A DNA stretch of 64,000 bases from an uncultured Pseudomonadota bacterium (GCA_963847705.1 CAWKBC010000029.1:97278-161277); one strand, 5' to 3'. Shown: positions 28,075-57,901, counted from the stretch's first letter. The notes: generated from the sequence alone by a model not told the origin. Made by a program: numbers and translations.

Positions 28075-28132
28075 GCAGATCGGAGGGGCCGGAGGCATCG
28101 ACCGATTGACCGGCATTGGCTACGCTCCCGCC

Positions 28133-38010: not shown

Positions 38011-38111
38011 ATTAGAACATCGAGCGCGCCGGCCGGGCTCTGTCTTTCGACAGCCTCTGACACTGTCGGCACACTATGGCTAGTACACGAGATCCCAAGT
38101 TCCTATCCAGG

Positions 38112-38426
38112 CTAAGGGGTTGATGCGAGAAGCCAGGTGAAGTCCTGGTGGAGCCAGGCGACCATGTTGCCGCGTGGACCGACGAAGGGGATGGGCTCCC
38201 AGCGGTTGGAGTGGGTGCGTACGTCGACACGCCAGTTGTCGCGTTCCAGAAGGCGGAAGCGGAGCCGGACCTCGGGGTCTGTGGTCGGGCCGGACTCTAC
38301 GAAGACGGCGTTTCGCACGACGCGCGCGCGAAGGTGCTTGTAGCCCAGGATATGCAGCAGCCGCTCGATTCCGGCGGCATCGTCGGCAAGGGTGGCGGGG
38401 GGCTTCTTACTCGTGGCTTTGGGCAT
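38112..38426 (-). CDS. small hypothetical protein
   Basis: ATG 38426: MPKATSKKPPATLADDAAGIERLLHILGYKHLRARVVRNAVFVESG...RWEPIPFVG...; 104 aa. The start lies 20 nt from the IS630 transposase stop. Confidence 0.4.
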   Translation of the reverse strand: MPKATSKKPPATLADDAAGIERLLHILGYKHLRARVVRNAVFVESGPTTDPEVRLRFRLLERDNWRVDVRTHSNRWEPIPFVGPRGNMVAWLHQDFTWLLASTP

Positions 38427-38429
38427 CAG

Positions 38430-39600: not shown

Positions 39601-39610
39601 GTCTCACGAA

Positions 39611-42691: not shown

Positions 42692-43406
42692 CGTGACCTC
42701 CCAGGGGCTAGGGACGGAGGAGATGATTCCTAAGGTGGATAGACTCGTCCGAGCGCCGTTCAAATGGCGGGCTGAGCTGCGGGTCCCGCTACATTTCATC
42801 AATAGCTTGCTCGTTGGTCAAGAGATAGGCGGCGGTTTGCGCGTTTTCGGGCCCGCGCATTTCCTGCCTCTTGGCCAAGGGCCGGACACCTCCCAGACTC
42901 AATCCCCAGACGTGATACGATGCGCTTGGCTATCAGTTGCGGCTCGCAGCCAAAGGGGCGAGCTTGAAACGAATCATGATCTCGGGCGTGATGGCTCTCG
43001 CAGTTCGGGTCAGGGTAGGGACGTACTCAAAAGCCCTCGCCTCCTCCAGTCGAGCATCGGGGCTGCTGTTCACACCACGGCGGCGAGTGCGGGTGCGATA
43101 GCGGTCATGACAAGGGCTGCGACGGCACCGTTAGTCCTACCTGCGGCTGTGACTAATATAGGCGTCCCAAGCCTCGCTGAGGCTCGACGTGCTGGCCCGA
43201 TGGTGGCCCCCGTACTCGTTCGTAGCGGGCGTCGCTGCTGCGCGCGTGCCACTGAAGGTAGCGGCCTCAGATCGCGATCCTTACGGCCATTCGTTTACAG
43301 CCGCGTCGCGCCAAGACAGGCTGTGTTCGTCGAGCGGATCAGGCCGCCAGATCTCGGGACACCGAAGCAGGATCGCTGAAGAAGCGGGCGAGCCTAGCCC
43401 CGTCTC

Positions 43407-43428
43407 TGTGACCCCATCGGGAATTGAA
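43407..43428. repeat. attL: 22-bp direct repeat tgtgaccccatcgggaattgaa (copy of the tRNA-Glu 3' end)
   Basis: Identical to 57739..57760. The bases on both sides differ. Confidence 0.8.
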
Positions 43429-43791
43429 AGCACCCCAAGCGTCACGAAACGGAGCGAGGATCTGTCATCTCCGACGGAAAACCGAGGAACGAGGTCGTCG
43501 AAAAGGCGCCTCGTCGCGCTGAGCGGTAGCAAAGTAGCAAAAATCGCTGCAATTGCGCGAAATGCTGTAGAAAATTACGATCTGACTCGGGCAATCGAGG
43601 TACTAGAGGAGCTGCGGCGGCTCGGCGAAGGGCGATCGCGCTGAAGGCACTGAAGGCCGCGATCCGGTTGCTAGAATCCTTCAAGGACGCGCCGGAGAGC
43701 CCCCTCGGTGCCACGCGCAGGTGACGAAGAATCGGGACACGGCGCGCAATCTATAGCGCGAACCCCGGCTCTGCCAGCGCGGCCGTGCGAT

Positions 43792-44625
43792 TCAGGCCGC
43801 CGGCCAGTGAATGGCTACCCAGGCGTCGATCTCGCGCCAGGCATCGGCGTTGAGCGCGTCGTTGTGACCGACGCCCGGCACCAGGAGTAGCTTCTTCGGT
43901 CCCGCGAGCGCGCGGGTGATGCGTTCGGAGTGGGCGGGTGGCGTCTCCCGATCGTTAGCGCCGTGAATGACCAGGACCGGGACCCGAATCCGGGCGGCGG
44001 CCGCGGCGGGATTCACCTCATCGGCGCGGAACCTCGCCTCCGCTTCGGCGAGCCGGAACGCCTCGTCGATGTTGCCGCGGCTGGCGAAGAAGGGCGCGCG
44101 CTCGGCGGCCACCGTGCGCAGGTCCGAGAACGCCGAGACCGCGACCACCAGCGCGATCCGCGGATCGTCGGCTGCGGCCTGCAGCGCGACCGCCGCGCCA
44201 AGCGATGCCCCGAGCGCCAGAACCGGCCCACCCCCCACCTTGTCGATAGCTCGGCTCAGATCCTTCTTCTCGTAGAACCCATACGTGCAGGCATCGCCGC
44301 CCGACTCGCCGTGGGCGCGGCTGTCATAAGCGAGCACGTCGAACCCGAGCGCGGTGAAGTGCGCCGCCACGCCGATCCCCGAGGCGCGGTTATCGCCGAC
44401 GCCGTGCAGGTAGACGACCAGGCCGCGGCGCGGCCGCTCGGTGCGAAACAGCCAACCGCGCAGGTGGACCCCAACGTCGAGGTCGACGTTCTCGTATTTC
44501 GCTACCGGCACCTGGGAGACCGGTCGCCGCGGCGGGTGAAGCAACGCGTTCGCCGCCCAGGAGGGCGGCATGCACGACGGCAGCAGCGCCGAGACAACGA
44601 CGACGGCGACCCGAAGAGAGCGCAA
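43792..44625 (-). CDS. alpha/beta hydrolase (dienelactone hydrolase / S9-like) lipoprotein
   Basis: TTG 44625 gives MRSLRVAVVVVSALLPSC. YLHGVGDNRASG, nucleophile elbow GASLGAA, VLVIHGANDRETPP, and a GVGHND histidine. Confidence 0.7.
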   Translation of the reverse strand: MRSLRVAVVVVSALLPSCMPPSWAANALLHPPRRPVSQVPVAKYENVDLDVGVHLRGWLFRTERPRRGLVVYLHGVGDNRASGIGVAAHFTALGFDVLAYDSRAHGESGGDACTYGFYEKKDLSRAIDKVGGGPVLALGASLGAAVALQAAADDPRIALVVAVSAFSDLRTVAAERAPFFASRGNIDEAFRLAEAEARFRADEVNPAAAAARIRVPVLVIHGANDRETPPAHSERITRALAGPKKLLLVPGVGHNDALNADAWREIDAWVAIHWPAA

Positions 44626-44935
44626 CGCGAGAACTCTACCGCGCGCGCGTGGAAGACGCGATCTCAGTGCGGCGTGATACGCGCGACCACGTCCAGCCGG
44701 GTCCGGGCCCAGCCGCGGCGGAGGACGAGGGCGCGGTAGGCGCCGTCGAGTTCGCCCTCCAACGCCGTGAGCAACTTGTCGGCCTCCGCGAGATCGCGCG
44801 CGGCCACCCTCCGAGCCGCTCTCTTCTTTCGAGGTGCTCGTTCGCCTCGGTCGTGTTCCAAACACGCCTGATCAGCTCGTTTCCTGTCAGACTCGATCCG
44901 AACCTTGTCGCATCGTGGCTCGCGCGCCCTCGGCC

Positions 44936-45463
44936 TTACTTGCTGTAGATGCGTAACGGCGGTGCTGAGGCCTGCGAGACCTCGCGATAAGAACCCTTCA
45001 GACTGCTTTCTCCGAACCAAAACAGATACCAGATCGGGCCCTTGATTGTTGATCGGGTCTTATCGGCGGCGGTCCCGACCGCAACAATCCACCCCTGCCA
45101 TCGCAGCACAGAGTCGAGTAGTCCAACCCCGAGGCCGAGCTCGACGGGCTTGCCACGGTAAAAGAGGCGTCCGTCCCTTTCAACACGAACGTCGCTTCTC
45201 GCAGACTTTGCAGCATCGTTTTCTTTGATCATCTTCCAGAACTTCTGGTCGTCGAGGAACTCGACGCCATCGACGACTTCGACCGCGCGTTGCTCCTTTG
45301 CGTCCCATCGATGCCCGCAGCGCCGCAGCGCCGGCACACCGTCGATGAATTCGACCGAATGATTGCTCAGCATCAAAAACGCCCGGTTGGCTGCAACGCC
45401 CGCGTCGGCCGTCCCTGACATCATCACTGCCGCTCCGAGCAGAATAGCGACATGCAGTTCCAT
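44936..45463 (-). CDS. putative immunity protein for the upstream RHS toxin (secreted, unknown family)
   Basis: Starts 13 nt after the RHS stop. Signal MELHVAILLGAAVMMSGTADA. 175 aa. Lower GC, like the RHS tip. Confidence 0.45.
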   Translation of the reverse strand: MELHVAILLGAAVMMSGTADAGVAANRAFLMLSNHSVEFIDGVPALRRCGHRWDAKEQRAVEVVDGVEFLDDQKFWKMIKENDAAKSARSDVRVERDGRLFYRGKPVELGLGVGLLDSVLRWQGWIVAVGTAADKTRSTIKGPIWYLFWFGESSLKGSYREVSQASAPPLRIYSK

Positions 45464-45475
45464 TAGCCCTCCTCA

Positions 45476-47968
45476 TCACTTGGCTGGGTGGTAGTTCCAA
45501 CTGAACAGCAGGGGCCCAAACCCCCAATAAGACGCAGCCGGATCGTAGTTCATGGGAATCCCCGCCGCTGTAGCAAACCAGTGCGCGAAGTAGTTGCTGT
45601 TGGTTCCCGACCAATCGTACGTCAGCTTCTGGGCATTGAACGGATCGATAAGTGCTTGAAAATCCTGGAGCACAACGGGCGCGGATCCGTGAAAGAAGAC
45701 CGGTGTGCCTGGGGGGTTCTCGTTAACGAAATGTTTGGCCGCATCTCCCACTGTATCATACTTGTTGGCAGTAGCATAGAGAGTGCCCCCCTGCCCGTTC
45801 TTGTCGCACCCGGAGCATCCGGCCTCGATGAGAACGGCTGTGCCATCGTCCGTCTCAATTATCCAGCCGGCGTGTGATGCGTCGAAGAACGAGACGATGA
45901 GCTGCTTCCACCACACGAACGAGGACGAGTCGATCTGGCGCGACATCAAGAGCGCAGTGCCGGTCCTCGGGATAAGGCCGTTGCAAGCTGGGTCACCGGT
46001 CTTACAAGCTATGAACGTGCCGTCGTGCTTCTTCGCCGCGTCGGCCCCCTCGCCGTTGCCCTGCGACAGCTGAATCACCTTCTGTAGGCCCAGCGTTGCG
46101 GCCCCCTCCCCAGCGCTAAGGAGCGCGGCCCCCAGAAGATCGTAACCTGAGACGTCTCTTCCGGACAGCCCCTCGGACCAGGCGGTCACGTACGCGGCCG
46201 ACGCCGACCCGAAAATAAGGTTGGCCAGTGGGCTGCCGCCAGGCCCCCCGAACTCTACGCCGCCTACGAATCCCAGGCCGAGCCCGAGCGCAGTCGTAAA
46301 CAACGTTTGGGCAACTCCCGCCCCATCCGATATTGCGATAGCGGCATTGAGTGCCGCAAATTCCAGTCCAAGGGCCAAGCAGCCGACCTCGGTGGTTGCA
46401 CACGCCACTATGGACGCGGCTACCTCAATATCGGTGAGCGGATTGCCGAAGACAAACTCGAAGTAGTTGCCGAGCTTGCTCCAGAAGTAGCCCGTCGGGT
46501 CGTTGTACCGGAGGGGGTTATTCCCGACGTAACTGTAACGGTTGTAGTTCTGAAGGTCGTCTGTGAACTGGACATTCGGATCTGGTGAGAGAAAGCGAGC
46601 GAGCACGGGGTCATACACCCGCCCATTCATGTTCACGAGGCCGACGTCCGGGATCTGCTCTTGTCCCGTGAATTCGCGGTCTCCGGGCGGCAGGGGGAAC
46701 GACGCCGGATCCGCGAGCGTCCCGTCGGGATTCCGCCGGGCCCCCCATGCGTCATAGCTCAAGACGGTGGCGCTGGTTCCAGCGGACTGGACGCTGGCAA
46801 CCCGGCCATTGTCGTCGCTCATGGAGGACACGGAGCCGAGGTGATCGAAGCTGTAGTACTTGCTGTCGGTCGGCTGCCCGTTATCGTCCAGAACGCGGAG
46901 CGCGAAAGCATTGTCGTTGTGGAGGTTGCCCGCGTAGATGAAATGTACATTCTTGGGTGTGGCACCGGGAGTCGTCGTTCGCTCGTAGAGACTCTTTCCC
47001 GTGGCTCCCAGACCGACGTACACCGTCCGCGTCGTGACCCCTCCACTCGTCGCGGTCTGAAGGACGCGGTTCCCGTCGGCGCCGTACGCGAAACCGACGC
47101 TGGCGCCGCCGCTGCCGACGGTTTCGATGGTCGTCACCTTGTTCGACGGGTTGTAGCCCACCGAACGGCTCCCGTTCGAAGTCAGGTTGCCATTGTCGTC
47201 GTAGGCGTAGGCCGTGCCATTTCCCACGGTGCAGACGGCGTGTGGTCCGGCCGTGCGGCCTCCTGCCTGACAGCCCGAGCCGTAGGTGTAGTTGTTGTTG
47301 TCCTTCTGGGTTAGGTTGCCCACGTTGTCGTAGACATAGGATTTACTGACGGGCCCCGAAGACGTGAAGGTCACGGCGTTCGTGAGTCGGTTCGTGAGGT
47401 CGTAAGCGAAACTCTCTTGCGAGATGTTTCCGCTGGCGGCGTCGTTCCGGTTTCGATTCAACAGGTTGCCGATCTCGTCGTACCCGTACCCCTGACTCTG
47501 GATCACGTTGTCGTGGTCTGCGTGGGCCGTCCCTGTCGATGCCATCAGCCATCCGGTGATCGAGTTGCGCGTTGAAGCGATCTCGACGCCGTTCTTCATC
47601 TGCTCGTCGATGACCTGGCCGAGAACATTCTCGGCCTTCGCCTGCCACAGCACCGAATAGTCCGTCGACTCGTCGGTCAGGTACTGAAGGTAGCCCGAGC
47701 TCGTATAGTGATAGCCGACCGCAAGCTGGCTGGTGTTCACCACAGGGTAACGAATCAAGCTCTGCCGCCCCAAGCCGTCGTACTGGTAGGAGGTCGCGAA
47801 GGAGGTGCCGTCGGCGCACTCGTCAACCTCTTGCAAATCACCCAGCGGCGTATAGACGTATGACTTGACGGCTACCTGGCCGCCGTTACCCGGCGCGCCT
47901 TGGGAGAAAACAAAGACCCCGATTTTCGATGAAATCCTCGGCAGGCAAGACTCTCCTTCTTCGAGCAT
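45476..47968 (-). CDS. RHS repeat-associated core protein, N-terminally truncated, with a C-terminal polymorphic toxin domain
   Basis: YD/RHS repeats (YQYDGLGRQ, YGYDEIGNL, YAYDDNGNL, ...). Core-end motif RYSYVGNNPLRYNDPTGYF at about 46481-46540. About 335 aa of C-terminal tip follow. The ORF is only 830 aa, with no N-terminal secretion or PAAR-type region. Confidence 0.8.
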   Translation of the reverse strand: MLEEGESCLPRISSKIGVFVFSQGAPGNGGQVAVKSYVYTPLGDLQEVDECADGTSFATSYQYDGLGRQSLIRYPVVNTSQLAVGYHYTSSGYLQYLTDESTDYSVLWQAKAENVLGQVIDEQMKNGVEIASTRNSITGWLMASTGTAHADHDNVIQSQGYGYDEIGNLLNRNRNDAASGNISQESFAYDLTNRLTNAVTFTSSGPVSKSYVYDNVGNLTQKDNNNYTYGSGCQAGGRTAGPHAVCTVGNGTAYAYDDNGNLTSNGSRSVGYNPSNKVTTIETVGSGGASVGFAYGADGNRVLQTATSGGVTTRTVYVGLGATGKSLYERTTTPGATPKNVHFIYAGNLHNDNAFALRVLDDNGQPTDSKYYSFDHLGSVSSMSDDNGRVASVQSAGTSATVLSYDAWGARRNPDGTLADPASFPLPPGDREFTGQEQIPDVGLVNMNGRVYDPVLARFLSPDPNVQFTDDLQNYNRYSYVGNNPLRYNDPTGYFWSKLGNYFEFVFGNPLTDIEVAASIVACATTEVGCLALGLEFAALNAAIAISDGAGVAQTLFTTALGLGLGFVGGVEFGGPGGSPLANLIFGSASAAYVTAWSEGLSGRDVSGYDLLGAALLSAGEGAATLGLQKVIQLSQGNGEGADAAKKHDGTFIACKTGDPACNGLIPRTGTALLMSRQIDSSSFVWWKQLIVSFFDASHAGWIIETDDGTAVLIEAGCSGCDKNGQGGTLYATANKYDTVGDAAKHFVNENPPGTPVFFHGSAPVVLQDFQALIDPFNAQKLTYDWSGTNSNYFAHWFATAAGIPMNYDPAASYWGFGPLLFSWNYHPAK

Positions 47969-48240
47969 ACGGGTGAAGAGGAAGCGTCTTGGTAGGGGTC
48001 GGGCGGTCGGGATGGCGCGTCTCGGCCAGGAACGACCTCCAGTGCGCTTGCAAAGTGGTGTAGAGGACGATCTCTTCTGGGGCGGTACCGGTCATAGCTG
48101 CCAGGAGGGAGACGAGGCGCCCCTCGGCGCGGCACCAGGCGCGGCCACCCCGATTCATCGGAAGCGAGCCGACCAAGGTTTCGTCCTTGGCCGCGGTACC
48201 GCCCCGAATGGGTCCCGCGCCCGGTACAGTGGCGACGCTG

Positions 48241-50250
48241 CTAGCGTCCGGGGCCAAACCGCGCGAGAGGGTCGCCAAGCGGTAGGCGTTCTGGCTCGTC
48301 GCGATGGCGCCCTTCGAGCCTGCGCAATCGGTCGTCCTGCCGTCTGAGGTGTTCAGCGAGGCGGTCTCCTGGCACACCAAACGCAACGGCCGCCGTCCGC
48401 TTCGCGTACGCATCCCAATCGCGCATCTCGTCTGGCCGAACAGCAGGCGCGGCCTCCTTGATCGCCCGCACGATCTCGCCCCGGTGGTGGCCAGTAAGGC
48501 GCATGCGGACAGCGATCTCGGCATCGACCCGCGACGGGTGGATGGGCTGACCTGGGTGCTCCCGGGTGACATCCGCGAGGTGACGCCGATAGACCGCCGC
48601 CGCCGTGCGAGTCTCCGCTATCCCGGCCGGTCGGCGATCGCGATCCGTCCGGTGCTCTCTTGCGGGTGTGCGAATCCGCTCCCGCTCCGCGGCAAGGGCA
48701 TGCTGGAGCTCCGGGTTCGCGATATTGAAGCCGTGCTCTGCAGCCAGTTCGACGCACATTCTCTGGAACAGCTCTTTTCCGCGGACGGTGAAGGCACCCC
48801 ACTTCTGGGCGCTCAGTTGAAGGGCGGCGAGGACGCTTTCCCTTCGGTTGCTGTCATAGATGTCGATCTTCTTACCCCTGTCCGTGAAGGCCGGGGAGGC
48901 GCGCTCGCCGACGCGATGATAGTGGACGTGCCAACCTTCAGCGAGCGCAGCGAACGCCCGGATGTCCTGGGGCGCCGGGCGCTCGAAGGTCAGCCCCTCT
49001 ATGCCGGCCGGCTGTCGTTCTCGATGTCGCCACTCCTGCGCGAGTTCGTGGTCCCTGTGACGCAGCCATTCCTCGTAGCTCGGGAACCGTCCCAGTTCCC
49101 TTTGCGGCTCGCCGCACTCCAGTTTTTGGCGATCACGCTGCTCCGCCCTTTCCTGCGCCTGACGGGCGGCGAGCATGCTCCGGGCCGCGTTGAGGAGCGC
49201 CCCACGACCTTTCCACGACCCGCGGAAGATCTCGGTCCGCTCCCGCCGATGCCGGGCGGCCATGCGTCTCCCGTCCTCCCGCTGCTGCTCCCGGTGAGCC
49301 CCACGCTCTCCGTAGTGACGGCCACGCGCCTCGATGTACTGCTTCCAGCCATAAGCGCTCGGTGTGATCGGCTCTGGAGTTCGGAGGGGTGTCATCACCC
49401 TGGCGGCATCCTTCGTCAGCTCGAACTCTCCGAGGCGCTTCTGCAGCGCCGACATCGAGCAGTCGCGGCCGGCGCTGCTGGCCTTCACCGGCTGATCGCC
49501 GACCCACAGAATCGCTCCCGAGCCCTTCCTCTCGAAGCGCATTCCCTTCTCGGCCAAGACCTCATGCATCTCCCTCCAGCTCCGAGCCGCGCGGATAGCG
49601 GGCGCTCCGTCCTCGATGGCCACCCGCTCGGCGCTCCGCGCGCCCACCCGCTCTTCGAAATTGCGGGCTCGGGCGGACGGTTTGCGTTCTTCCTCGCCGC
49701 GCGGTCGATCGCGCTCAACGCGCCCGTCCTCCTGCACCCGGAACAGACCGCGGTCCTCCCTCTGCCACCCCTGAGAGTTCTCGATGCGAGCGATCGCCCG
49801 GTGGGCGACCTCGTGGTCGAACCCGTTGTTCACGGTGGCTAGCTTCTCGGTCTCTGGGTGAACACGGTTGACGGCCATGTGGAGGTGCCAGTTCTCCGTG
49901 TCGCGGTGCAGCCCGTAGAGCGCCTGGTGCTCGGCCAAGCCCATCTCATCCAGGAACATCCTCGCCGCCTGATCAGCCTGGGCCGACGTCGGCTGCTCTC
50001 CCTCCTTCCAGCTCATGATCCAGTGCTGTACTGGCTGGGGGCTGCCCATGGCCAGGTCCGCCAAGTCGATCATCTCCTGCACCTGTTCCTCGTGATCGAG
50101 GTTCAGGAGGTTCAGGGAGCCCCGGTGCTCCACCTTCTCACCAGCGCCGCCGGCACCGGGGCCGGCGATGTAGTCGGCCAGGGCGCGCACGTGGGCAGCC
50201 TTGCTCTTGGGCGCCCCGACCTTCGATCGCGCGACCTTCTTGACGATCAG
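48241..50250 (-). CDS. traI: IncP TraI-type relaxase (MobP family)
   Basis: LIVKKVARSK...ALADYIAG (catalytic Tyr region), HWIMSW, HRDTENWHLHMAVNRVHP (HxH motif), colinear with RP4 TraI from memory. The longest canonical start (GTG 50190) would remove the conserved N-terminus, so the start is placed at CTG 50250 / ATC 50247. Confidence 0.75.
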   Translation of the reverse strand: MIVKKVARSKVGAPKSKAAHVRALADYIAGPGAGGAGEKVEHRGSLNLLNLDHEEQVQEMIDLADLAMGSPQPVQHWIMSWKEGEQPTSAQADQAARMFLDEMGLAEHQALYGLHRDTENWHLHMAVNRVHPETEKLATVNNGFDHEVAHRAIARIENSQGWQREDRGLFRVQEDGRVERDRPRGEEERKPSARARNFEERVGARSAERVAIEDGAPAIRAARSWREMHEVLAEKGMRFERKGSGAILWVGDQPVKASSAGRDCSMSALQKRLGEFELTKDAARVMTPLRTPEPITPSAYGWKQYIEARGRHYGERGAHREQQREDGRRMAARHRRERTEIFRGSWKGRGALLNAARSMLAARQAQERAEQRDRQKLECGEPQRELGRFPSYEEWLRHRDHELAQEWRHRERQPAGIEGLTFERPAPQDIRAFAALAEGWHVHYHRVGERASPAFTDRGKKIDIYDSNRRESVLAALQLSAQKWGAFTVRGKELFQRMCVELAAEHGFNIANPELQHALAAERERIRTPAREHRTDRDRRPAGIAETRTAAAVYRRHLADVTREHPGQPIHPSRVDAEIAVRMRLTGHHRGEIVRAIKEAAPAVRPDEMRDWDAYAKRTAAVAFGVPGDRLAEHLRRQDDRLRRLEGRHRDEPERLPLGDPLARFGPGR

Positions 50251-50570
50251 GACGCGCCTCCGTCGCCGACCGCGAGGCGGGCAATGGCGGCGCGCAAGCC
50301 GGCTAGTGCGGCAGCTGTCTCACGGCTGTAAGCGCCACAGCTCTCGCCGTGGACCAGCTTGAGCAGGCCACCCAGGCGCCGCAGCTCACGGATGGTCGTC
50401 GCGTCGGTACGCGATACGACGGGCCGGCCCAAAGCGCGCGCCCGCACGAGCTCCGCGACCGCAACGCCCGCGGTATCGGCTACCTCGCGGAGCCTGGCCT
50501 TCTCGGCGGGCGCCACGCGCACGTCGAGACGCACCGTGAGCCCGGAGGCACCCTTCTTAGCGAATGGCAT
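50247..50570 (-). CDS. traJ: TraJ/MobC-family relaxosome accessory protein
   Basis: ATG 50570: MPFAKKGASGLTVRLDVRVAPAEKARLREVADTAGVAVAELVRARALG...LRRLGGLLKLV, like RP4 TraJ (LGRLGGLLKLW). Confidence 0.7.
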   Translation of the reverse strand: MPFAKKGASGLTVRLDVRVAPAEKARLREVADTAGVAVAELVRARALGRPVVSRTDATTIRELRRLGGLLKLVHGESCGAYSRETAAALAGLRAAIARLAVGDGGAS

Positions 50571-50696
50571 CGGCGTCGCTTCCGATCTGACTGCTGCGAG
50601 AAGCGAATGCGCCGAGCAGCTCCGGGGCCGCCTCTGACGGCGCCTCGAACGAGAGAAGCGAAGCGCCGAGCGGTCGGGGCGTCGCGGGGCTTGGGA

Positions 50697-50745
50697 GGAC
50701 ACGTGCGGCGCCAGCCGCATGTGTCCGGACAAGCCCCCATCCTGC
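50697..50745 (+). promoter_or_regulatory. candidate oriT: imperfect 13-bp inverted repeat plus an IncP-type nick consensus ATCCTGC
   Basis: ggacacgtgcggc (50697-50709) / gccgcatgtgtcc (50714-50726), 12 of 13 bases complementary. ATCCTGC follows at 50739-50745. It lies in the traJ-traK divergent intergenic region. Confidence 0.55.
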
Positions 50746-51048
50746 TATCCGCCTCCCCCCACTCGGTGATGGCAGCGGTGAATGCGCGTTCGTCACCATC
50801 TTCTAATCGGCCAGATGCAACGAGATGTTTCTGCCAGCGGTGGCTCTTGGCCTTCGGTGGCAGGGCTGAACGCAGCTAACGGATCGGCGGTAGGAGAAAA
50901 GGATCCGCAGTGGCGACCCTCGTCACGTCGCTCCGGTGGCCGGATCCACATCGGAGAGGAAACATTGCTCGTCGTCTGGCCGATAAGTCATTGAGAGCCG
51001 AAACGCAGATTCCTGTCCTGCGGCTCGAGGAATTAACCGGAGACACCC

Positions 51049-51456
51049 ATGACGTACACGCTCGAACAGACCGAGGGAATGGTGAGCGCGCTCCGCGCTC
51101 TGCCGGCGATGGACAGCTCGACACGCAGGCTGACCAAACAGGCGGTGGTCAAACGCCTGGCACGGGAGATCGCAGCCCTGCAAACCCGCGGATACACCAT
51201 TGAGAAAATCGTCGGATGCCTACACGGCATCGGACTCGAGATCACCACTCCGACGCTGAAGAGCTATCTGCAGAGGGTCAAGAAACGGCGTGGCACCGAC
51301 GCGCCCAAGAGGCAGAGCCGTCGCGTGTCGGCGGCTACGCCGCCGACGCGCGAGCGGGAGACGCCGGCACCCGCGGTGACGGAGCCGAAGGCCGACGGGG
51401 CCGCACAACGGAGCGGCAAGGATGCATTCCTCGTGAAGGACAAAGACACCTACTAA
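51049..51456 (+). CDS. traK: TraK-like oriT-binding protein
   Basis: 135 aa. ...RLAREIAALQTRGYTIEKIVGCLHGIGLEITTPTLKSYLQRVKKRR then a Pro/Ala-rich tail ending AFLVKDKDTY. Layout and position resemble RP4 TraK. Confidence 0.55.
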   Translation: MTYTLEQTEGMVSALRALPAMDSSTRRLTKQAVVKRLAREIAALQTRGYTIEKIVGCLHGIGLEITTPTLKSYLQRVKKRRGTDAPKRQSRRVSAATPPTRERETPAPAVTEPKADGAAQRSGKDAFLVKDKDTY

Positions 51457-51470
51457 CGAAAGGATCGGAC

Positions 51471-52154
51471 ATGTCGAAATCAATCCTTCTGGTCGGCGGT
51501 GGCAAGGGCGGAGTCGGCAAATCGCTGCTCTCGATGACCGTCGTGGACTACCTGGATGGCGCCGGAAGCGGACCATTCCTGGTCGAGACGGATACCTCCG
51601 TCCCCGACGTCTACAAGACTTACAAGGACGCTGTCGGTGGCGAGTTGGTGAACCTCGATGAACGCGAAGGTTGGATCGACCTGGTGAATCTGGTCGAGAG
51701 CAAGCCGGAAAGCACCATCGTCATCAACACGGGGGCACGCAATCAGACCGGCATCAGCAACTTCGGCAGGACCCTCGGGAAGGCGTTGCCGCAGCTAAAG
51801 AGGAAGCTCGTCGTCCTCTGGCTGATAGATCGAAAACGGGAGAGCCTGGAACTGCTGGCGGATTTCACGGAGGCACTCCCGGAGGCAGAGATGCACGTCG
51901 TCCGGAACATGTACCTAGGGACGGAAAGGAAGTTCGAGCTCTACAACGGCTCGAAGATGAAGGCGACGATCGAGAAGTCAGGGGGCAAGTCACTGAACTT
52001 CCCGGAGCTGGCGGATCGGGTCACGGACGCGATGAACAAAGGACGGCTGACGATCGCGAAGGCCTCTGTGGAGCTGTCGCTGGGGGATCGGATGGAGCTG
52101 GAACGGTGGCGGGAGGAATGCAGGGTGATGCTCACGGAGGCAATCCGTGAGTGA
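51471..52154 (+). CDS. traL: TraL-like P-loop ATPase (ParA/MinD fold)
   Basis: ATG 51471 after AAAGGA. MSKSILLVGGGKGGVGKSLLSMTVVDYL...FLVETDTSVPDVYKTYK. Same position as RP4 traL. Confidence 0.7.
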   Translation: MSKSILLVGGGKGGVGKSLLSMTVVDYLDGAGSGPFLVETDTSVPDVYKTYKDAVGGELVNLDEREGWIDLVNLVESKPESTIVINTGARNQTGISNFGRTLGKALPQLKRKLVVLWLIDRKRESLELLADFTEALPEAEMHVVRNMYLGTERKFELYNGSKMKATIEKSGGKSLNFPELADRVTDAMNKGRLTIAKASVELSLGDRMELERWREECRVMLTEAIRE

Positions 52155-52794
52155 GTTGGATGACAGCTTCGCGGCGCTTCTGGGGAGGCAACCGAGCGAC
52201 CGCGAGCGGCAAAATCTCTACCGGGTCCGCGACGCTCTGAAGCTCAAGAACAACGACGCCGTATGGCTGCTGCTGATGGCGCTCGAACACTACGACACGC
52301 GCTACAGCCAATATCCCGCGTACATGGTGGCGGCTGCGAAGGAGATCACCAAGGACGTCCGAGAGACGGCTCTGGCGCAAGCTCGCGCCGCCACGGCGGA
52401 GACGACTAAGGCCCTCGCGCACGCGGTGGCGGCAGCCGCCACTGCATCGGCCAAGAAGGCAGCCGGAGCGCAGATGTTGAAGTGGGCCACGGGTTGCTTC
52501 CTGGCGGCGCTGGGATGCATCTCGACGATCGGTTGGTGGGCACACGGCAGGGGTCATCGGGCGGGGTACGCCGTCGGGTACGAGGCAGCCAGAGACAAAT
52601 ACGAGAATGCCGCTGCGATAGCGTCGTGGGCGAACACCCCGGAAGGACGGCTCGCGTACGGGCTCGCGAAGGGAGGCGGCCTCCGCGAACTCGCAACGTG
52701 CTCCGGCCACGGATGGGTGGAGCGAGAGGGAATGTGCTACCCGAGTAATAAGACGCACGGCTGGCGGTTACCCGCGGGCTCCCCCGACCAATAG
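52147..52794 (+). CDS. TraM-position membrane protein (relaxosome/leader operon), weak similarity
   Basis: GTG 52147 overlaps the traL stop. N-terminal NNDAVWLLLMALEHY resembles RP4 TraM RDDPILILQTMNDRLL. One TM (CFLAALGCISTIGWW). Confidence 0.45.
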   Translation: MSELDDSFAALLGRQPSDRERQNLYRVRDALKLKNNDAVWLLLMALEHYDTRYSQYPAYMVAAAKEITKDVRETALAQARAATAETTKALAHAVAAAATASAKKAAGAQMLKWATGCFLAALGCISTIGWWAHGRGHRAGYAVGYEAARDKYENAAAIASWANTPEGRLAYGLAKGGGLRELATCSGHGWVEREGMCYPSNKTHGWRLPAGSPDQ

Positions 52795-52948
52795 CTAGAG
52801 CGCCGCTTGGGCGGGTGACTCGTCGAAGGCTCTCGCCGCGAGTACCAGCGGACCACGCCGGGCTGGTTTCGCGCAGATCGGGCCGGTGCTTCCTAACCGC
52901 GGCGGATCCTCGAGAATGAGACCGCGGTGGGTCGAGTTTACGGACGCT

Positions 52949-53488
52949 CTATGAGCGTGTGACGGTCACCGTCCCGGTCACGCCCTGACCGGTGACATAG
53001 AGGGAGGTATTCATGACCGTTCCATCGCGAAGCAACGACGCCTCGATTTGATAAGAATCAACCCACAGTTCAAGCGAGCCCCCGTCGAACGTCGTCCCGA
53101 AGACGATGAAGTCCCCGGAGAGTGGAGCGTTCATCAGCGACGGATCGCCGGAGATGAAGGTGATTGCCAGAGGCATCGAGCTGATGTCTTCGCAGGCGGC
53201 TGCGCTCTTGACCAGCGTCCGGCTACCACAGGCTTGGGCCGCGCGGATCAACGAGCGCCCCGACGCCTGTGCAGTCGCACCCGGCGGGTTGTCCGCCTCG
53301 TCGAACCGAACGGTCATCGCGGTCGACGTACCACCGTTGGGCGTGATGGTGAACGTCCAGTTCCCGGTGATCGCCGCTACCATCTCGGTCGCGCCGTACT
53401 GAAACTGCGGCTCGTCAGGGCTGGCGCAACCGAGGTTGGGATTGAGCAAGAAGGCCGCGATAGGGACAAGCCACAATAAGTTACGCAT
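52949..53488 (-). CDS. lipoprotein, unknown function (IME cargo)
   Basis: MRNLLWLVPIAAFLLNPNLGC lipobox. 179 aa. Confidence 0.5.
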   Translation of the reverse strand: MRNLLWLVPIAAFLLNPNLGCASPDEPQFQYGATEMVAAITGNWTFTITPNGGTSTAMTVRFDEADNPPGATAQASGRSLIRAAQACGSRTLVKSAAACEDISSMPLAITFISGDPSLMNAPLSGDFIVFGTTFDGGSLELWVDSYQIEASLLRDGTVMNTSLYVTGQGVTGTVTVTRS

Positions 53489-53637
53489 GAGCCGATTGTG
53501 CGCTGGCGGGGATCCCGGCGCAACCGCCGCGGGACGACGCCCCGCCCTGTTTCAGGCTTTCTCCGCGAGACGGTGAGTGCCCGCCGGTCTTCCGATACCG
53601 CCCACGCGCCACACCTGGTCCGAAGGATTGGTTCGGG

Positions 53638-54390
53638 TCAGATTGCTTGGCAGGCAATCATTGCAAAGCCACTCGTCTCGCTGCACTGGCACTGCTCCCC
53701 GCATGCGAACCCAGAATTGCAGAAGCAAGCGCAAGTTGGATCGTGTGCGCAAGCGGGTTCCACGCCGGTTTCAAAGGCTCTGCATGACGCAGTCGCTCGG
53801 CCGGTGGTGTTCGGATGCGGGAGGGCGATGTAGCAATAGGTCTGCCCGACGACGCAGGTTGGCGGCGAGCCGGCGTCGGGGGCGGCCACCATGCCCCCGT
53901 CCGCCGTGAAGCCGAATCCGCCGGCGCACGCGTAAGGCGTCCCCTGCGCGGCGGCACCGTCCCCGCCGGAAGAGCCGGAGAGCCCAGCGGCACCGCCGGT
54001 CGCTCCCCCGAGGCCGCCGACCCCTCCGGACCCTGAGCTCCCACCAATCCCGCCGCCGCCTCCGGAACCGACGCTCCCGCCGGTCGCGCCTCCGGTGCCG
54101 CCGATGATGCACTGGGATATCGACGGTTCCTCAATCGTGCCCGCGGGGCAGACCCAGGTCCCTGTGCTCGCGCAAATGTAAGGTTCGGTCACAGGGTCGT
54201 GGTCTACGAGCGCCAGGCAGCAGACGCTCGACAGGAGGGTCTTAGGGCAGACACTCGAGCCGCCGCTCCCGCCGCTTCCGCCCGACAAAGAGCTTCCGCA
54301 CCCGATGGTGAAGAGGAGCGCCGCGAGATGGACGACGCGTCCACGGGGACCGCGTTCGAACGATCGGCGACCCGGCACGGAATTAGCCAT
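53638..54390 (-). CDS. Cys-rich lipoprotein with Gly-rich linker, unknown function (IME cargo)
   Basis: HLAALLFTIGC lipobox, GGSGGSGGS and GGTGGATGGSVGSGGGGGIGGSSGSGGVGG linkers, and 20 or more Cys. Confidence 0.5.
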   Translation of the reverse strand: MANSVPGRRSFERGPRGRVVHLAALLFTIGCGSSLSGGSGGSGGSSVCPKTLLSSVCCLALVDHDPVTEPYICASTGTWVCPAGTIEEPSISQCIIGGTGGATGGSVGSGGGGGIGGSSGSGGVGGLGGATGGAAGLSGSSGGDGAAAQGTPYACAGGFGFTADGGMVAAPDAGSPPTCVVGQTYCYIALPHPNTTGRATASCRAFETGVEPACAHDPTCACFCNSGFACGEQCQCSETSGFAMIACQAI

Positions 54391-55188
54391 TTCCGATTGT
54401 GAAGCAACAACCGGACCCGAGATAACCCCCCCGAAACTCCGGGCCCGGCGCCGAGATCAACCGGACAAGCGCCGGCACAACGCGACAGAACTGTCGCGGG
54501 TCCGTGATGAAGCCTGCGGCGACGGAACAACAGGGACGTCTAGGCTCATGCCGCTTTTTACCGCCGACGCCCGTCGCGTCTTCCGATCTCGGCCGGGCAC
54601 TACGCCTGGGTCGAAGGGCTAGGAGCCGCGCACCGATAGCCCCGGCGGAAATCGGGAGCCCCCGCAAAACAAGCGGCTCAATTTCCTGCGAGTTGCCGAG
54701 AAGTTGGACAAAGGCGATCGAAGACCTCACCCCCCCAAAAGAGTTCGTCGCTTTCGCTGTTCAGTTGTCGAGAACTCCGTTTGAAGGACCAGATCTCATG
54801 AGAAACAGGAATAGGACCGGTCTGATCGGTCTCTTCCAAGGTTTTCGAAGGGGAAACACTGGAAAAGAAATGGGAAAGCCGCTTTCCGCCGCCAACCCGG
54901 CATTCCTGTTGACCGCAAGCCGACCCAATCCTCGGCACGGCGGCTGCGACCACTCTCGCCCGGATGAACGGCAGGACGCAGAACGAGGCCTTGCCGGCCG
55001 AGGCTCTCGGAGGCTTGCGACCCCGCTAGGTCAAAAATTCTGCGGTTGGCCGAGAACCCCCGGTGGAAGGAGATTCCCATGAGGACCGGCAACCCAGCTC
55101 GATCTCGCCCGAAGGACGATCACGACGGCCCATCCAAGCAGGGTCGGGGCCATTTCATCCGTTGTTTCGTGAGACGGGGTGAACAGCC

Positions 55189-55986
55189 ATGAAACCCAAG
55201 ACGAACGCCGTGCGTGACGAATTGATCACGTCTCATCTGCACATCGCCCGATCGCTCGCTCGTACTCTCCACTCCTCGATCGGAAAGTGTGTGGCGCTTG
55301 AAGATCTTGTCGCCTATGGCGACAAAGGTCTTGTCGAAGCGGCCTCCCGATTCGATTGCACCAAGGGCGTTCCTTTCAGCGCATTTGCGTGGCGCCGTGT
55401 TGAAGGATCGATCGTAGACGGGATCCGCGCCCACAGCCCTCTTAGCCGCCGCGCCTACGAGCGTCTTCGCACCAAACAGGCGCGCCCAGCGAACGATACT
55501 GGGACCGAGGTCCTCCTGACACCTGATCTCCCCGCGAAGGAAGACAGTGACTCCCGGCGCGCCGAGACAACCGAACCAGGCGAGGCTTGCCACGACGCCC
55601 GCTGGAACGGCCGCCGAATGGCTCACCTCCCAGTCGCTGAGGACGATTCGCTAGAGGTGCTCGTCGTCGCCGAGCTCCGACGCCTGCCCGAACGCGAGCG
55701 GCGCGTCCTCCATCTCTGTTACTACCGCGGCAAGACCCTGACAGGGGCCGCCCTTGAGATGGGGAATGGCCGCTCGTGGGCCTCGCGCCTGCACGCCGAG
55801 GGACTTGCCACCCTCCGGGCCGCCATCGAAACGAGCGATTCCGTCTCCCTACCGTCAACGCACGCCTCGCGGAAACATCGGCTCGCGGCAAGCCGACATC
55901 AGGAGAACACCACCGACCGAGAGGACGCCGACCGCGACGGTCGGTCACTCGCCACGCCAAAGCCAGGCGACGGGGATCCGCTGTGA
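55189..55986 (+). CDS. sigma-70 family RNA polymerase sigma factor (FliA/group-3-like)
   Basis: Region 2: DLVAYGDKGLVEAASRFDCTKGVPFSAFAWRRVEGSIVDGIR. Region 4: LRRLPERERRVLHLCYYRGKTLTGAALEMGNGRSWASRLHAEGL. Confidence 0.7.
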   Translation: MKPKTNAVRDELITSHLHIARSLARTLHSSIGKCVALEDLVAYGDKGLVEAASRFDCTKGVPFSAFAWRRVEGSIVDGIRAHSPLSRRAYERLRTKQARPANDTGTEVLLTPDLPAKEDSDSRRAETTEPGEACHDARWNGRRMAHLPVAEDDSLEVLVVAELRRLPERERRVLHLCYYRGKTLTGAALEMGNGRSWASRLHAEGLATLRAAIETSDSVSLPSTHASRKHRLAASRHQENTTDREDADRDGRSLATPKPGDGDPL

Positions 55987-56134
55987 CACTTGCGGCATTT
56001 CCACCGGGATTGACTTGCGATGCCGTCCGGTGGGAGCTGCGGACATTGAATCGCGAGCATGTTCTTCTATCGGCGACGGGCGGCGCCGGTTGCGCGACCG
56101 ATCCCCAGATTCGGCAGGGATTGGAGGTCTCGCG

Positions 56135-56485
56135 GTGAGCCTGTTCGACGAAAAGGTGCTCCGAGACATCGTGGCCGACGAGCTCCGCCGAGTCCTGCGC
56201 GAAGAAAGAGGCGAGTACAGGCGACCGGCCAATGACGGTGAATACCTGCCGGTTGCCGAAGCAGCAGGCCGAGCGGCCGTCGCGCCAGCGACGATCCGAA
56301 CATGGATGGCCCAAGGAAGACTTGGTCGTTACCACGCAGGACGGGAACTGCGGGTTCTCTGGTCAGAGCTGGCCAGCTTGATGCGCAAGCCGCCCAAGAA
56401 GTCGGATGGCGCCGAGGGCGACCGGATGACGCCCGAAGAGGAAGCGGCCGTCTACCTTCAGCGACGGCGCAAGCGAGCGACGTGA
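56135..56485 (+). CDS. xis: excisionase-family (MerR-like HTH) DNA-binding protein
   Basis: GTG 56135 preceded by GGAGG. EYLPVAEAAGRAAVAPATIRTWMAQGRLGRYHAGRELRV. Lies immediately upstream of the integrase. Confidence 0.6.
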   Translation: MSLFDEKVLRDIVADELRRVLREERGEYRRPANDGEYLPVAEAAGRAAVAPATIRTWMAQGRLGRYHAGRELRVLWSELASLMRKPPKKSDGAEGDRMTPEEEAAVYLQRRRKRAT

Positions 56486-56548
56486 GTCGCAAAGGTGATC
56501 TCCATCGACGACAACGCCGACGAAGATCGGCAGACTAGGAGGTGAGCC

Positions 56549-57778
56549 ATGGGAAGCCTTTACACCAAAGGGGACAAGCTCTGGATTCGCTACAAGGACG
56601 AGACCGGCAAGTGGGTCGGTGCGCCGACACAGTCGAGGCCGGGTGAGGAGAAGCGAGCCCTGCGGCACCTCGCCGCGGTGGAAGCGCACGTGAAGGCCAT
56701 GACGGAGGCGAAGACAAAGGCGGACGTGGAGCCTGGCGCGCCGCTGACAGTGGCGGCGTACGTGAATCGCTGGCTCTCCGATCGAAAACGTCTCGGCCTG
56801 CGTTCCATTCCTGACGATACGTCCCGGATGAATCTGCACGTGCTTCCACATATCGGCAGCATGGAGCTGCACGAGGTTCGTCCCCGCCACCTGCGCGAGC
56901 TCGTCTTGCGACTCCGAGAGAAAGGGAAACTCGCGCCTCGAACGATCCACCACGTCTATCATCTGACGGCGACGCTGTTCCGGACCGCGGTTGCAGAAGA
57001 GCTGATCGATGCCACTCCCTGTGTGCTTCAGCGTGGCGTTCTTCCGAAGAAGGTCGACAAGGATCCAACCTGGCGGGTCACCGCTATCTACACGCGAGAA
57101 GAGATCGAGAAGTTGATCTCCGATCGGCGCATCCCGGAGGACCGGCGCGTCCTGTATGCGCTCAAGGCGCTCGGCGGCCTTCGTCACGGAGAGGCGGCAG
57201 GTCTCCGCTGGCGGCAGTACGACCAGACGCTGGAGCCGCTCGGCGGCCTGTCTCTCGAGCAAACGAAGACGCAGGTGCCGCGACGTGTTCCCGTCCACCC
57301 TACCCTGGCCCGCGTCCTCAGCGAGTGGAAGTCAGCCGGCTTCGAGAGGACCTATGATCGAGCGCCGACCGCGATCGATCTCGTCGTTCCGACGCGCAAC
57401 TTCACCGAGCGCTCTGCGCAGGAGACGCCGAAGCAGCTGCACGGTGATCTCAGAACGCTCGGGCTGCGCGAGCGTCGTGGCCACGACCTTCGTCGCACGT
57501 TCGTCACGCTCGCTCAGGTCGATGGCGCACGCCGCGATCTCCTCGAAACGATGAGCCACGGGCCTCGGGGAGACATCGTATCCGTGTACACCACCTTCCC
57601 CTGGCCGGCGCTCTGCGCCGAGATCGCGAAGCTGAAGATCGAACTGCGATCCGACGGAGTTCACGACGGCAGTAGCAAAGCCTTTGCTACCGCGTTTGCT
57701 ACCGGTCACGTAAAAGGTCGGAACCGCTGGATAAAAAGTGTGACCCCATCGGGAATTGAACCCGAGATTTCGCCGTGA
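56549..57778 (+). CDS. int: tyrosine-type site-specific integrase
   Basis: 409 aa. RHGEAAGLRW, HDLRRTF, SHG, IVSVYT (R-H-R-Y catalytic set). The 3' end runs through attR into tRNA-Glu. Confidence 0.85.
   Translation: MGSLYTKGDKLWIRYKDETGKWVGAPTQSRPGEEKRALRHLAAVEAHVKAMTEAKTKADVEPGAPLTVAAYVNRWLSDRKRLGLRSIPDDTSRMNLHVLPHIGSMELHEVRPRHLRELVLRLREKGKLAPRTIHHVYHLTATLFRTAVAEELIDATPCVLQRGVLPKKVDKDPTWRVTAIYTREEIEKLISDRRIPEDRRVLYALKALGGLRHGEAAGLRWRQYDQTLEPLGGLSLEQTKTQVPRRVPVHPTLARVLSEWKSAGFERTYDRAPTAIDLVVPTRNFTERSAQETPKQLHGDLRTLGLRERRGHDLRRTFVTLAQVDGARRDLLETMSHGPRGDIVSVYTTFPWPALCAEIAKLKIELRSDGVHDGSSKAFATAFATGHVKGRNRWIKSVTPSGIEPEISP
57739..57760. repeat. attR: 22-bp direct repeat within the tRNA-Glu 3' end
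   Basis: Identical to 43407..43428. Covers tRNA positions 53-72 plus 2 nt downstream. Confidence 0.8.
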
Positions 57779-57812
57779 GAGGGCGACGTCCTAACCGCTA
57801 GACCATGGGGCC
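57741..57812 (-). tRNA. tRNA-Glu (anticodon CTC)
   Basis: Folded by hand: acceptor GGCCCCA/TGGGGTC, D stem GTCT/GGAC, anticodon stem TCGCC/GGCGA with loop CTCTCAC, T stem TCGGG/CCCGA with loop TTCAATT. 72 nt, no encoded CCA. Confidence 0.9.
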
Positions 57813-57830
57813 GCTATTCAGTTTTCAGAG

Positions 57831-57901
57831 TTCGGGGACAAGGATTCGAACCTTGATAGCCACATCCAGAGTGTGGCGTCCTGCCATTAGACGATCCCCG
57901 A
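57831..57901 (-). tRNA. tRNA-Gln (anticodon CTG)
   Basis: Folded by hand: acceptor TCGGGGA/TCCCCGA (U1-A72), D stem GTCT/GGAC, anticodon stem CCACA/TGTGG with loop CTCTGGA, T stem CAAGG/CCTTG with loop TTCGAAT. 71 nt. Confidence 0.9.

Follow-up and report, generated by a model that had tools for sequence, protein, structure and literature searches.

A probable integrative mobilizable element at tRNA-Glu with an IncQ-2/IncP-6-type relaxosome and no mating-pore genes

The 64-kb stretch of DNA analysed here (GCA_963847705.1, CAWKBC010000029.1:97278-161277; the whole of it is referred to below as the window) contains a 14.35-kb segment, at positions 43407-57760, which an earlier note had called an integrative mobilizable element (IME) inserted at a tRNA-Glu gene. 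We found that, by its structure, this segment is very probably a canonical IME in the sense of the definitions of Guedon et al. 2017 (PMC5704250), because it has its own recombinase, its own relaxase and its own origin of transfer (oriT), and no type IV secretion system (T4SS) or type IV coupling protein (T4CP); moreover, it is flanked by attachment (att) repeats at a specific site. Whether the element is currently active is uncertain, and we consider both answers to be about equally probable. As judged by sequence comparison, the direct kin of its relaxosome are the MobABCDE cassettes of the T4CP-less mobilizable plasmids of the IncQ-2 and IncP-6/IncG groups. This kinship strengthens the interpretation of the element as mobilizable, since such a module is typical of plasmids devoid of a T4CP. 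The open reading frames (ORFs) of the element were scanned against Pfam, NCBIfam, PHROGs and PADLOC.

Boundaries of the element and its integration site

The ends of the element are marked by the 22-mer TGTGACCCCATCGGGAATTGAA, which has exactly two copies in the window, at 43407-43428 (attL, the distal copy, + strand) and at 57739-57760 (attR, + strand); no other copy with up to three mismatches is present in the window, and none is expected according to 100 shuffles. ARAGORN and Rfam agree in placing a tRNA-Glu(CTC) gene at 57740-57812 (- strand) and a tRNA-Gln(CTG) gene at 57830-57901 (- strand). The right repeat corresponds to the final 21 nt of tRNA-Glu and one additional base, and the tRNA-Glu gene, as the integration target, is kept intact by the repeat. 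The perfect repeats matching the 3' end of this tRNA gene, as given in the earlier note, were fully borne out. Tandem accretion via degenerate att copies located to the left of attL was also considered and rejected, as no further copy was found even with up to six mismatches allowed.

The right end is well defined, because homology with related genomes breaks at, or within 20 bp of, the 3' end of the tRNA gene. The alignment with five such genomes (L019-L023) begins at 57721-57740, that is, at most 20 bp from attR, and in L019, L020 and L022 it starts exactly at the tRNA 3' end (57738-57740). The DNA to the right of the element is conserved host DNA (tRNA genes, PP2C, fumarase); the PP2C/cNMP gene is a conserved gene of Polyangia, and in a database comparison its product in L019 was 100% identical to that encoded in the window. 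The assignment of attL is based on the perfect repeat, the putative arm sites described below and a shift in base composition. The host DNA has about 70% GC, with a GC content at third codon positions (GC3) of 0.82-0.96 in the flanking host genes; both values drop within the element, the GC3 of its genes being 0.73-0.79. The left flanks of L019-L023 could not be aligned with the window, and tblastx in this region was dominated by noise due to GC composition.

Candidate arm-type integrase binding repeats are located just inside both ends. About 100 bp inside attL, at 43525-43542 (+ strand), GGTAGCAAA and GTAGCAAAA are found, while GTAGCAAAG followed by two copies of TTTGCTACC lies at 57672-57703 (no strand assigned), 35-65 bp inside attR. 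The motif GGTAGCAAA has three copies in the 64 kb against 0.1 expected; all three are placed within 120 bp inside the att ends, and further degenerate copies adjoin them. Such a distribution is the usual picture for arm-type integrase sites, and we thus regard these repeats as candidate sites.

The gene adjacent to attR (56549-57778, + strand) encodes a 409-aa tyrosine integrase, which matches PHROG_1 (integrase, 3e-35) and in which the R...HxxR...H...Y catalytic residues are visible by inspection. Of the int and xis genes named previously, int was therefore confirmed, whereas the evidence for xis came down to a weak HTH_17 match (E = 0.0011) in a candidate excisionase of 116 aa (56135-56485, + strand), read from a GTG codon preceded by GGAGG as ribosome-binding site; the match reaches 19.6 bits at a cutoff of 27 and spans profile positions 3-49 of 51. 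Genes of the HTH_17 type adjoin int also in the related loci L017 and L020. A 78-aa ORF at 56302-56538 was rejected as xis, being Arg-rich out-of-frame noise, with the HTH_17 candidate lying in another frame. It needs to be mentioned that the integrase ORF reads through attR and stops within the tRNA gene, and that in the predicted circular form it would extend across attP to give 475 aa. As the ORF crosses attR and attP, the C-terminus of the integrase would differ between the integrated and the excised state.

According to the prediction, in attP position 57738 would be joined via the repeat to 43429, giving ...GGATAAAAAG-TGTGACCCCATCGGGAATTGAA-AGCACCCCAAGCG..., and in attB the left flank ...CCCGTCTC would be joined via the repeat to CCCGAGATTTCGCC. 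The tRNA-Glu locus itself is a recurrent integration hot spot in related Polyangia, as different islands occupy it in related genomes. To the left of tRNA-Glu, L019 carries another integrase and an AIPR gene, L020 and L021 carry an integrase together with an HTH_17 gene and a relaxase of the DUF3363 type, and L023 carries a 4.3-kb remnant with flanking repeats. In L022, where no integrase is present within 8.6 kb, the site is possibly vacant; L022 cannot, however, stand in for an empty site of the genome of the window. Taken over L017 and L019-L023, the tRNA-Gln/tRNA-Glu(CTC) locus (57740-57901) beside the PP2C-cNMP gene holds at least four islands with four distantly related integrases. The island of L020 represents a second type of IME, with a DUF3363-type relaxase.

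The relaxosome and its origin of transfer

The mobilization module is arranged as mobE-mobD-mobC / oriT / mobB-mobA, which is the layout of IncP Tra1 (traM-traL-traK / oriT / traJ-traI). Its largest gene, mobA/traI (48241-50250, - strand), encodes a MOBP relaxase of 669 aa when read from CTG at 50250, or of 649 aa when read from GTG at 50190. The protein contains the Relaxase, TraI_middle, LPD7 and RepB_primase_C (PF22448) domains, matches NCBIfam NF041893 (TraI/MobA(P)) over its full length with 268.1 bits (cutoff 250), and retains both the HRDTENWHLH motif and the catalytic LADYI tyrosine. In a tblastn search of 72,556 plasmids, its best matches, which share 44-48% identity across 89% or more of the protein, were on small plasmids, namely the IncQ-2 plasmid pTC-F14 and plasmids of about 11-57 kb from Aeromonas, Pseudomonas, Citrobacter and Klebsiella, part of which belong to the IncP-6 group, e.g. 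pCOL-1 (NC_022346). The relaxase is 46% identical to MobA of pTC-F14, and it is devoid of residues ~532-746 of that protein. As a consequence, the RepB_primase catalytic domain (PF16793), found at residues 551-741 of pTC-F14 MobA, is gone from the relaxase of the window.

The remaining four genes lead to the same group of plasmids. The mobB/traJ gene (50247-50570, - strand) encodes a NikA-like ribbon-helix-helix accessory protein of 107 aa (Pfam NikA-like, 2.5e-17; NCBIfam MobA, 3.8e-17, and TraJ, 2.3e-7), which shares 56% identity with pTC-F14 MobB along the entire 103 aa of the latter; because of this full-length alignment, its start was placed at the ATG at 50570. On the other side of oriT, mobC (51049-51456, + strand) encodes a traK-like relaxosome protein of 135 aa, recognized by its tblastn matches to the 'protein mobC' on plasmids of the IncP-6/IncG type (47-53% identity, with 58-64% of the protein covered) and by a position and size like those of pTC-F14 MobC; 173 of its 223 plasmid matches are on mobilizable plasmids. 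The product of mobD/traL (51471-52154, + strand) is a ParA/MinD-like P-loop ATPase of about 227 aa with the Walker A motif KGGVGKS. It is 42% identical to the full-length pTC-F14 MobD (NCBIfam TraL, 8e-6), and as this protein aligns along its whole length, M86 of the long ORF (51471) was taken as the start. Finally, mobE (52147-52794, + strand), in the position of traM, encodes a 215-aa protein with a weak Pfam DUF6753 match. It is 50% identical, over 97% of the protein, to the DUF6753 protein in the MobE position of IncP-6/IncG-type plasmids, and its N-terminus is 28% identical to pTC-F14 MobE (E = 2.5e-10). Most of the plasmid matches of MobC and MobE are typed as mobilizable. For comparison, pTC-F14 is annotated as mobE(220)-mobD(226)-mobC(131) / oriT / mobB(103)-mobA(889), with lengths in residues.

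The likeness to the IncQ-2 plasmids pTC-F14 and pTF-FC2 and to Rms149, pCOL-1 and p10265-KPC of the IncP-6/IncG group covers several features. The same five genes stand in the same divergent order around oriT, MobA, MobB and MobD show 42-56% identity and MobC and MobE about 50%, the oriT design (a hairpin followed by ACAAG(C/T)CCC-ATCCTG) is shared, and so is the absence of a coupling protein. PMC4785139 describes this 5.6-kb MOBP module as functional, the cluster of Rms149 mobilizing its plasmid in Escherichia coli, and reports mobA, mobB and mobC to be indispensable in pTC-F14 and pTF-FC2 according to genetic analysis, with mobD and mobE raising the mobilization frequency. With Tra1 of the IncP-1 plasmids RP4 and R751 the module has in common the gene order and orientation, a MOBP relaxase and the ATCCTG/C motif after an inverted repeat. 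However, the homology to this group is remote: TraI of R751 is only 24% identical to the relaxase, R751 TraJ, TraK, TraL and TraM gave no tblastn match in the window, TraJ and TraL were seen only as sub-threshold NCBIfam matches, and TraK and TraM were undetected. The element also lacks TraG (the T4CP), TraF, the TraC primase and the entire Trb pore. The relaxosome had been called IncP-type in the earlier note; as far as layout and MOBP family are concerned this name was justified, but its closest homologues turned out to be the MobA-E proteins of IncQ-2 and IncP-6 plasmids.

As all five mob genes have their closest characterized homologues on small mobilizable plasmids, and the relaxase retains the C-terminal helical domain of the RepB primase, the segment might be taken for an IncQ-2/IncP-6-like plasmid captured by the chromosome instead of a dedicated integrative element. 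We consider this improbable. The five-gene arrangement around oriT is there, but the relaxase-primase fusion and the replicon are not: between the repeats no repA/repC, repA-par or iteron-type replication genes were found, and the catalytic domain of the primase has been deleted. The latter is not peculiar to the window, since according to precomputed Pfam lists the match to the N-terminal primase domain is absent in 120 of the 120 relaxase relatives listed. Furthermore, members of the family adjoin tyrosine integrases at tRNA genes with flanking repeats. Compared with the IncQ-2 and IncP-6 plasmids, the module thus resides on a tRNA-integrating element instead of a replicating plasmid, is not accompanied by rep genes, has a MobA without the RepB primase catalytic domain, and is found in a host belonging to Polyangia, not Pseudomonadota.

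An oriT-like site had been proposed between traK and traJ, and this proposal was upheld. Between mobB and mobC, at 50686-50745 (+ strand), an imperfect inverted repeat (50686-50709 / 50714-50737) precedes CCCCC-ATCCTG-C, with the nick motif ATCCTG/C at 50739-50745. When folded as single-stranded DNA, the repeat forms a hairpin with an energy of -25.3 kcal/mol (z = -4.8), immediately 3' of which the nick motif is placed. The site with its hairpin and motif is almost unchanged in 11 related loci; the sequence GCCGCATGTGTCCGGACAAGCCCCCATCCTGCTA is identical in all 11 loci examined, while their relaxases are only 48-84% identical. A 34-nt oriT core was also found as an exact match in 47 JGI metagenome contigs of soil type. 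The site resembles the pTC-F14 sequence ...CATGTGTATGACAAGTCCCATCCTGT, and oriT of R751 follows the same design, with an inverted repeat, a spacer and ATCCTG/C. The nick is predicted to occur between 50744 and 50745 on the + strand; if so, the mobC-mobD-mobE side would lead into the recipient. Transfer with mobC-mobD-mobE first matches the 'leader operon' of IncP.

Presumed dependence on a helper and the present state of the element

The absence of a traG-type T4CP and of a T4SS, as claimed in the earlier note, was confirmed by both ORF scans and tblastn. Every sizeable ORF of the element was scanned against Pfam and NCBIfam without any T4SS or T4CP being found, and each of the ten largest ORFs in the rest of the window is either a housekeeping gene or devoid of T4SS/T4CP domains. 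The VirB4-type ATPase, the T4CP and the mating-pair formation genes that would characterize an integrative and conjugative element (ICE) were not found in the element or in the window. R751 TrbB, TrbC, TrbD, TrbE, TrbF, TrbG, TrbI, TrbJ, TrbL, TraF, TraG and TraC gave zero tblastn matches (E <= 1e-3), both for the window and for 69 related loci that add up to 501 kb, a result to be read with the caveat that highly divergent types of T4SS could escape BLAST with IncP-1 proteins; in the same search, R751 TraI matched 42 of the sequences. In the Pfam-annotated 10-kb flanks of eight relatives no T4SS genes are present, these flanks showing integrases, sigma factors and cargo, and in L004, L006 and L011 the sizes of the ORFs leave no room for a T4SS, the largest ORFs carrying no T4SS domain.

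The segment might also be one arm of a larger ICE, with the T4SS and T4CP genes located beyond the repeats or beyond the window, and the DNA to the left of attL (36983-43406), which is likewise foreign-looking and low in GC, would fit such a view. Nevertheless, we regard it as highly improbable. The region 36983-43406 encodes a PDC-S60-type STAND NTPase and small ORFs and no transfer genes, while the DNA to the right is, as described above, conserved in the host. Neither profile scans nor tblastn revealed a T4SS or T4CP of the same element in the adjacent DNA of the 64-kb window, no such match was found around the relatives, and L006 and L017, two related elements, are bounded at about 19 kb, which leaves no room for a T4SS.

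For the IME, which is the interpretation we favor, we hypothesize the following course of events. The tyrosine integrase, possibly together with the HTH_17 protein, would recombine the 22-bp cores with the use of the GGTAGCAAA arm sites, yielding a 14.3-kb circle and a restored tRNA-Glu. MobB, through its ribbon-helix-helix fold, and MobC would bind the oriT hairpin, the MOBP relaxase MobA would cut at ATCCTG/C and remain covalently attached to the 5' end, and the ParA-like MobD together with MobE would raise the efficiency of this relaxosome step. Because the element has neither a coupling protein nor a T4SS, a borrowed T4CP and pore would be needed, and the complex of relaxase and single-stranded DNA would be passed to those of a co-resident conjugative element. 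As is the case for IncQ-2 and IncP-6 plasmids, the helper would most plausibly be of the MPF_T/IncP-like kind. In the recipient, the strand would be recircularized, copied and integrated at tRNA-Glu. As to its origin, the module probably goes back to the mob cassette of relaxase-primase type carried by small broad-host-range plasmids, with subsequent loss of the primase catalytic domain and of all replication genes.

Several observations weigh against this scenario, in addition to the caveat concerning BLAST. The relaxase gene begins with CTG overlapping the stop codon of mobB (CTGA, 50247-50250), where six relatives have ATGA or GTGA; CTG may be a down-mutation of relaxase expression, in which case expression would be poor, and a start at the alternative GTG would give the 649-aa protein at the cost of about 20 conserved N-terminal residues. 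The integrase matches its Pfam domains (Phage_integrase, Phage_int_M and SAM_3) with scores that equal the cutoffs or fall just short of them, and the sub-threshold match of the excisionase candidate makes the case for Xis a weak one. Neither an empty attB nor an attP junction for this exact genome was found in public data, and the public data searched contain no near-identical copy of the element, the best relaxase match being 84% identical; recent mobility is thus unproven. Finally, searches of the window and the related loci revealed no helper T4SS, and none is known for this host.

These points lend some weight to the idea of an immobilized relic, i.e. an element that integrated once, no longer transfers because of poor or no relaxase expression or because of the lack of a helper in the lineage, and persists as a genomic island. 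The CTG in place of the ATG or GTG relaxase start speaks for it, as do the 5'-truncated state of the Rhs cargo gene, the lack of a near-identical copy, and the fact that no T4SS was found in any sequence examined, be it the window or the related loci. On the other hand, the two repeats are still perfect, int, the five mob genes and oriT are intact and uninterrupted, and the relaxase is full-length, 84% identical to its relatives and free of frameshifts. CTG, moreover, can initiate translation, especially when coupled to an overlapping stop codon, which here is that of mobB, and this also counts against a relic. We therefore judge the relic to be rather unlikely, although clearly less so than the captured plasmid or the arm of a larger ICE.

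Related elements, cargo genes and what the family would mean

Relatives of the relaxase form more than 120 clusters at an identity of at least 58%. In L017 the same Mob module is found on a 19.2-kb element at the same tRNA-Glu with 24-bp flanking repeats, and L006 holds a complete 19-kb element, which is inserted at tRNA-Gly between repeats of 54 bp or more; altogether, the relatives sit at tRNA-Glu, tRNA-Gly, tRNA-Leu and tRNA-Asp with differing integrases. The cargo in their flanks includes AbiE, GmrSD, HEPN, Fic, HtrA and OmpA as well as giant Kelch/YD-shell toxins with SMI1_KNR4. In L014 (7490-16561) and L004 (15220-20809) the Mob module adjoins an ATP-synthase operon, which in L014 includes ATPase_gene1 (N-ATPase-like) and which may be cargo. 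L009, a 9.9-kb contig with the module, was tried as a circle and rejected, having no terminal overlap. No relatives were found in the viral contig collection, and the element is thus not phage-linked. We propose, as a reading with an even chance of being correct, that the element is one of a large, undescribed family of tRNA-integrating IMEs in soil Polyangia, which would have arisen when the mob cassette (relaxase-primase) carried by IncQ-2/IncP-6-type plasmids was domesticated and its primase lost, would combine a near-invariant oriT with swapped integrases and tRNA targets, and would ferry polymorphic toxins and anti-phage genes.

Profile scans showed that the gene order given in the earlier note, counted from the tRNA end, was correct, and the remaining content it listed (a sigma factor, two lipoproteins, an Rhs tip with a putative immunity gene, and a hydrolase) was found as described. 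The sigma-70-family factor (55189-55986, + strand) has FliA/WhiG-like regions 2 and 4 (Pfam Sigma70_r2 and r4, with NCBIfam TIGR02937 above its cutoff). It is the only non-Mob gene common to the element and its relatives (L001, L004, L006, L013, L018), and it is probably the element's own regulator and may act as its regulatory switch. In L001, L006 and L018 the sigma factor gene adjoins the integrase gene, and L001 and L006 additionally carry a sigma-54-activator-like HTH_8 protein. The two predicted lipoproteins, recognized by inspection, are one of 179 aa (52949-53488, - strand), with a signal peptide and an NLGC lipobox, and a Gly- and Cys-rich one of 250 aa (53638-54390, - strand) with a TIGC lipobox; in the profile scans neither matched any family.

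On the other side of the module, a 5'-truncated orphan gene (45476-47968, - strand) encodes an Rhs/YD-repeat protein of 830 aa (Pfam RHS_repeat, 1e-8; NCBIfam Rhs_assc_core, 1e-17), in which the Rhs-associated core at residues 405-493 is followed by a C-terminal part of about 330 aa, presumably a toxin; the N-terminal half is missing. Directly downstream, a 175-aa ORF with an N-terminal signal-like segment (44936-45463, - strand) is, by its position only, a putative immunity or partner protein. Neither this ORF nor the Rhs C-terminal region received any assignment from Pfam, PADLOC, PHROG or PDB. In L018 (12858-22001) and L011 (13036-20346), full-length Kelch and YD-shell (teneurin/Rhs-like) toxins of 2941 and 2436 aa sit directly downstream of the relaxase, in the slot filled by the Rhs fragment in the window, and in L018 the toxin is followed by an SMI1_KNR4 immunity-type gene. 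Closest to attL, an alpha/beta-fold hydrolase (43792-44865, - strand; longest ORF 357 aa) matches Pfam Hydrolase_4 and Abhydrolase_1 (E ~1e-18). Its N-terminal ~77 codons are Arg/Pro-rich and have a non-coding look, and the real start is likely near 44634, before a lipoprotein-like signal peptide. The ORFs 47886-48572, 54504-55082 and 42693-43379 were rejected as spurious high-GC artefacts with biased composition and no matches.

Directly to the left of attL, a separate low-GC (53-63%) island of defence type, not belonging to the host core, occupies 36983-43406. It has no att copy of its own and no integrase; its main gene (39611-42802, - strand) encodes a 1063-aa calcineurin-like phosphoesterase (Metallophos) with a STAND NTPase, matching PDC-S60, a candidate defence system in PADLOC (E = 3.5e-100). 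The homology of the window to L019 stops at 36982, where this island starts, and the 109-bp fragment 36874-36982, which corresponds at 96% identity to the first part of a gene present in intact form in L019 (26-702), marks a rearrangement or deletion boundary at 36982. The L019 gene is a 79% paralogue of 27421-28077 of the window. L019 is the public contig ERZ26871208 contig_164571; it begins (1-25) with GTACTTCGTTCAGTTACGTATTGCT, probably an Oxford Nanopore adapter, and its integrase is split by a frameshift, and because of these two features we judge the assembly to be error-prone.

In kind, the element is an ordinary one, and nothing suggests a new mechanism. What is modestly new is the five-gene IncQ-2/IncP-6-type relaxosome on an integrative backbone, the loss of the primase domain and the invariant oriT, while the identity of the helper is the interesting point. 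The MOBP IMEs of Bacteroides (NBU1/NBU2, Tn4555) likewise have a site-specific integrase, their own relaxase and oriT and no complete T4SS, rely on the T4CP and pore of a helper, and are mobilized by IncP plasmids among others, as is the case for the NBU type (PMC5704250). NBU-type elements, however, possess one mob gene in place of the five-gene relaxosome found here. The 'IncP island' of Burkholderia glumae resembles the element in having TraI with TraJ- and TraK-like factors, but it also encodes the TrbJ/K/L pore subunits that are absent here (PMC5704250). Guedon et al. 2017 note that Proteobacteria had yielded no described canonical IME, and they list none from myxobacteria (PMC5704250).

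Myxobacteria figure mainly as recipients in laboratory IncP matings with E. coli donors. They do take up DNA mobilized by IncP from E. coli, and pMF1 is described as the first self-replicating plasmid to be found among them and as the source of their only shuttle vector (PMC11610982). The traffic of such toxins in Myxococcus has so far been ascribed mainly to prophage-like elements (PMC10047993). The literature searched contained nothing specific on native T4SSs, conjugative systems or IMEs in myxobacteria, which amounts to absence of evidence only; the remark in the earlier note that such systems are poorly described there agrees with this, within the same limit.

A widespread and conserved mobilizable family points to natural conjugative traffic in the myxobacterial phylum, the breadth of the family following from the relaxase clusters and from the metagenome contigs that share the oriT core. 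If the family reading is true, a conjugative helper, either native or a transient IncP-like broad-host-range plasmid, would be regularly active in myxobacteria, and conjugation would provide a genuine path for gene flow within a phylum with essentially no characterized native conjugative system. The invariant oriT and the relaxase are handles for finding the helper, as well as for constructing native vectors, mobilizable or integrative, for the hard-to-manipulate Polyangia and Sorangium-like strains. The cargo, which includes Rhs/YD toxins with immunity genes, and AbiE, GmrSD and HEPN in relatives, ties this vehicle to kin discrimination and to the turnover of defence genes.

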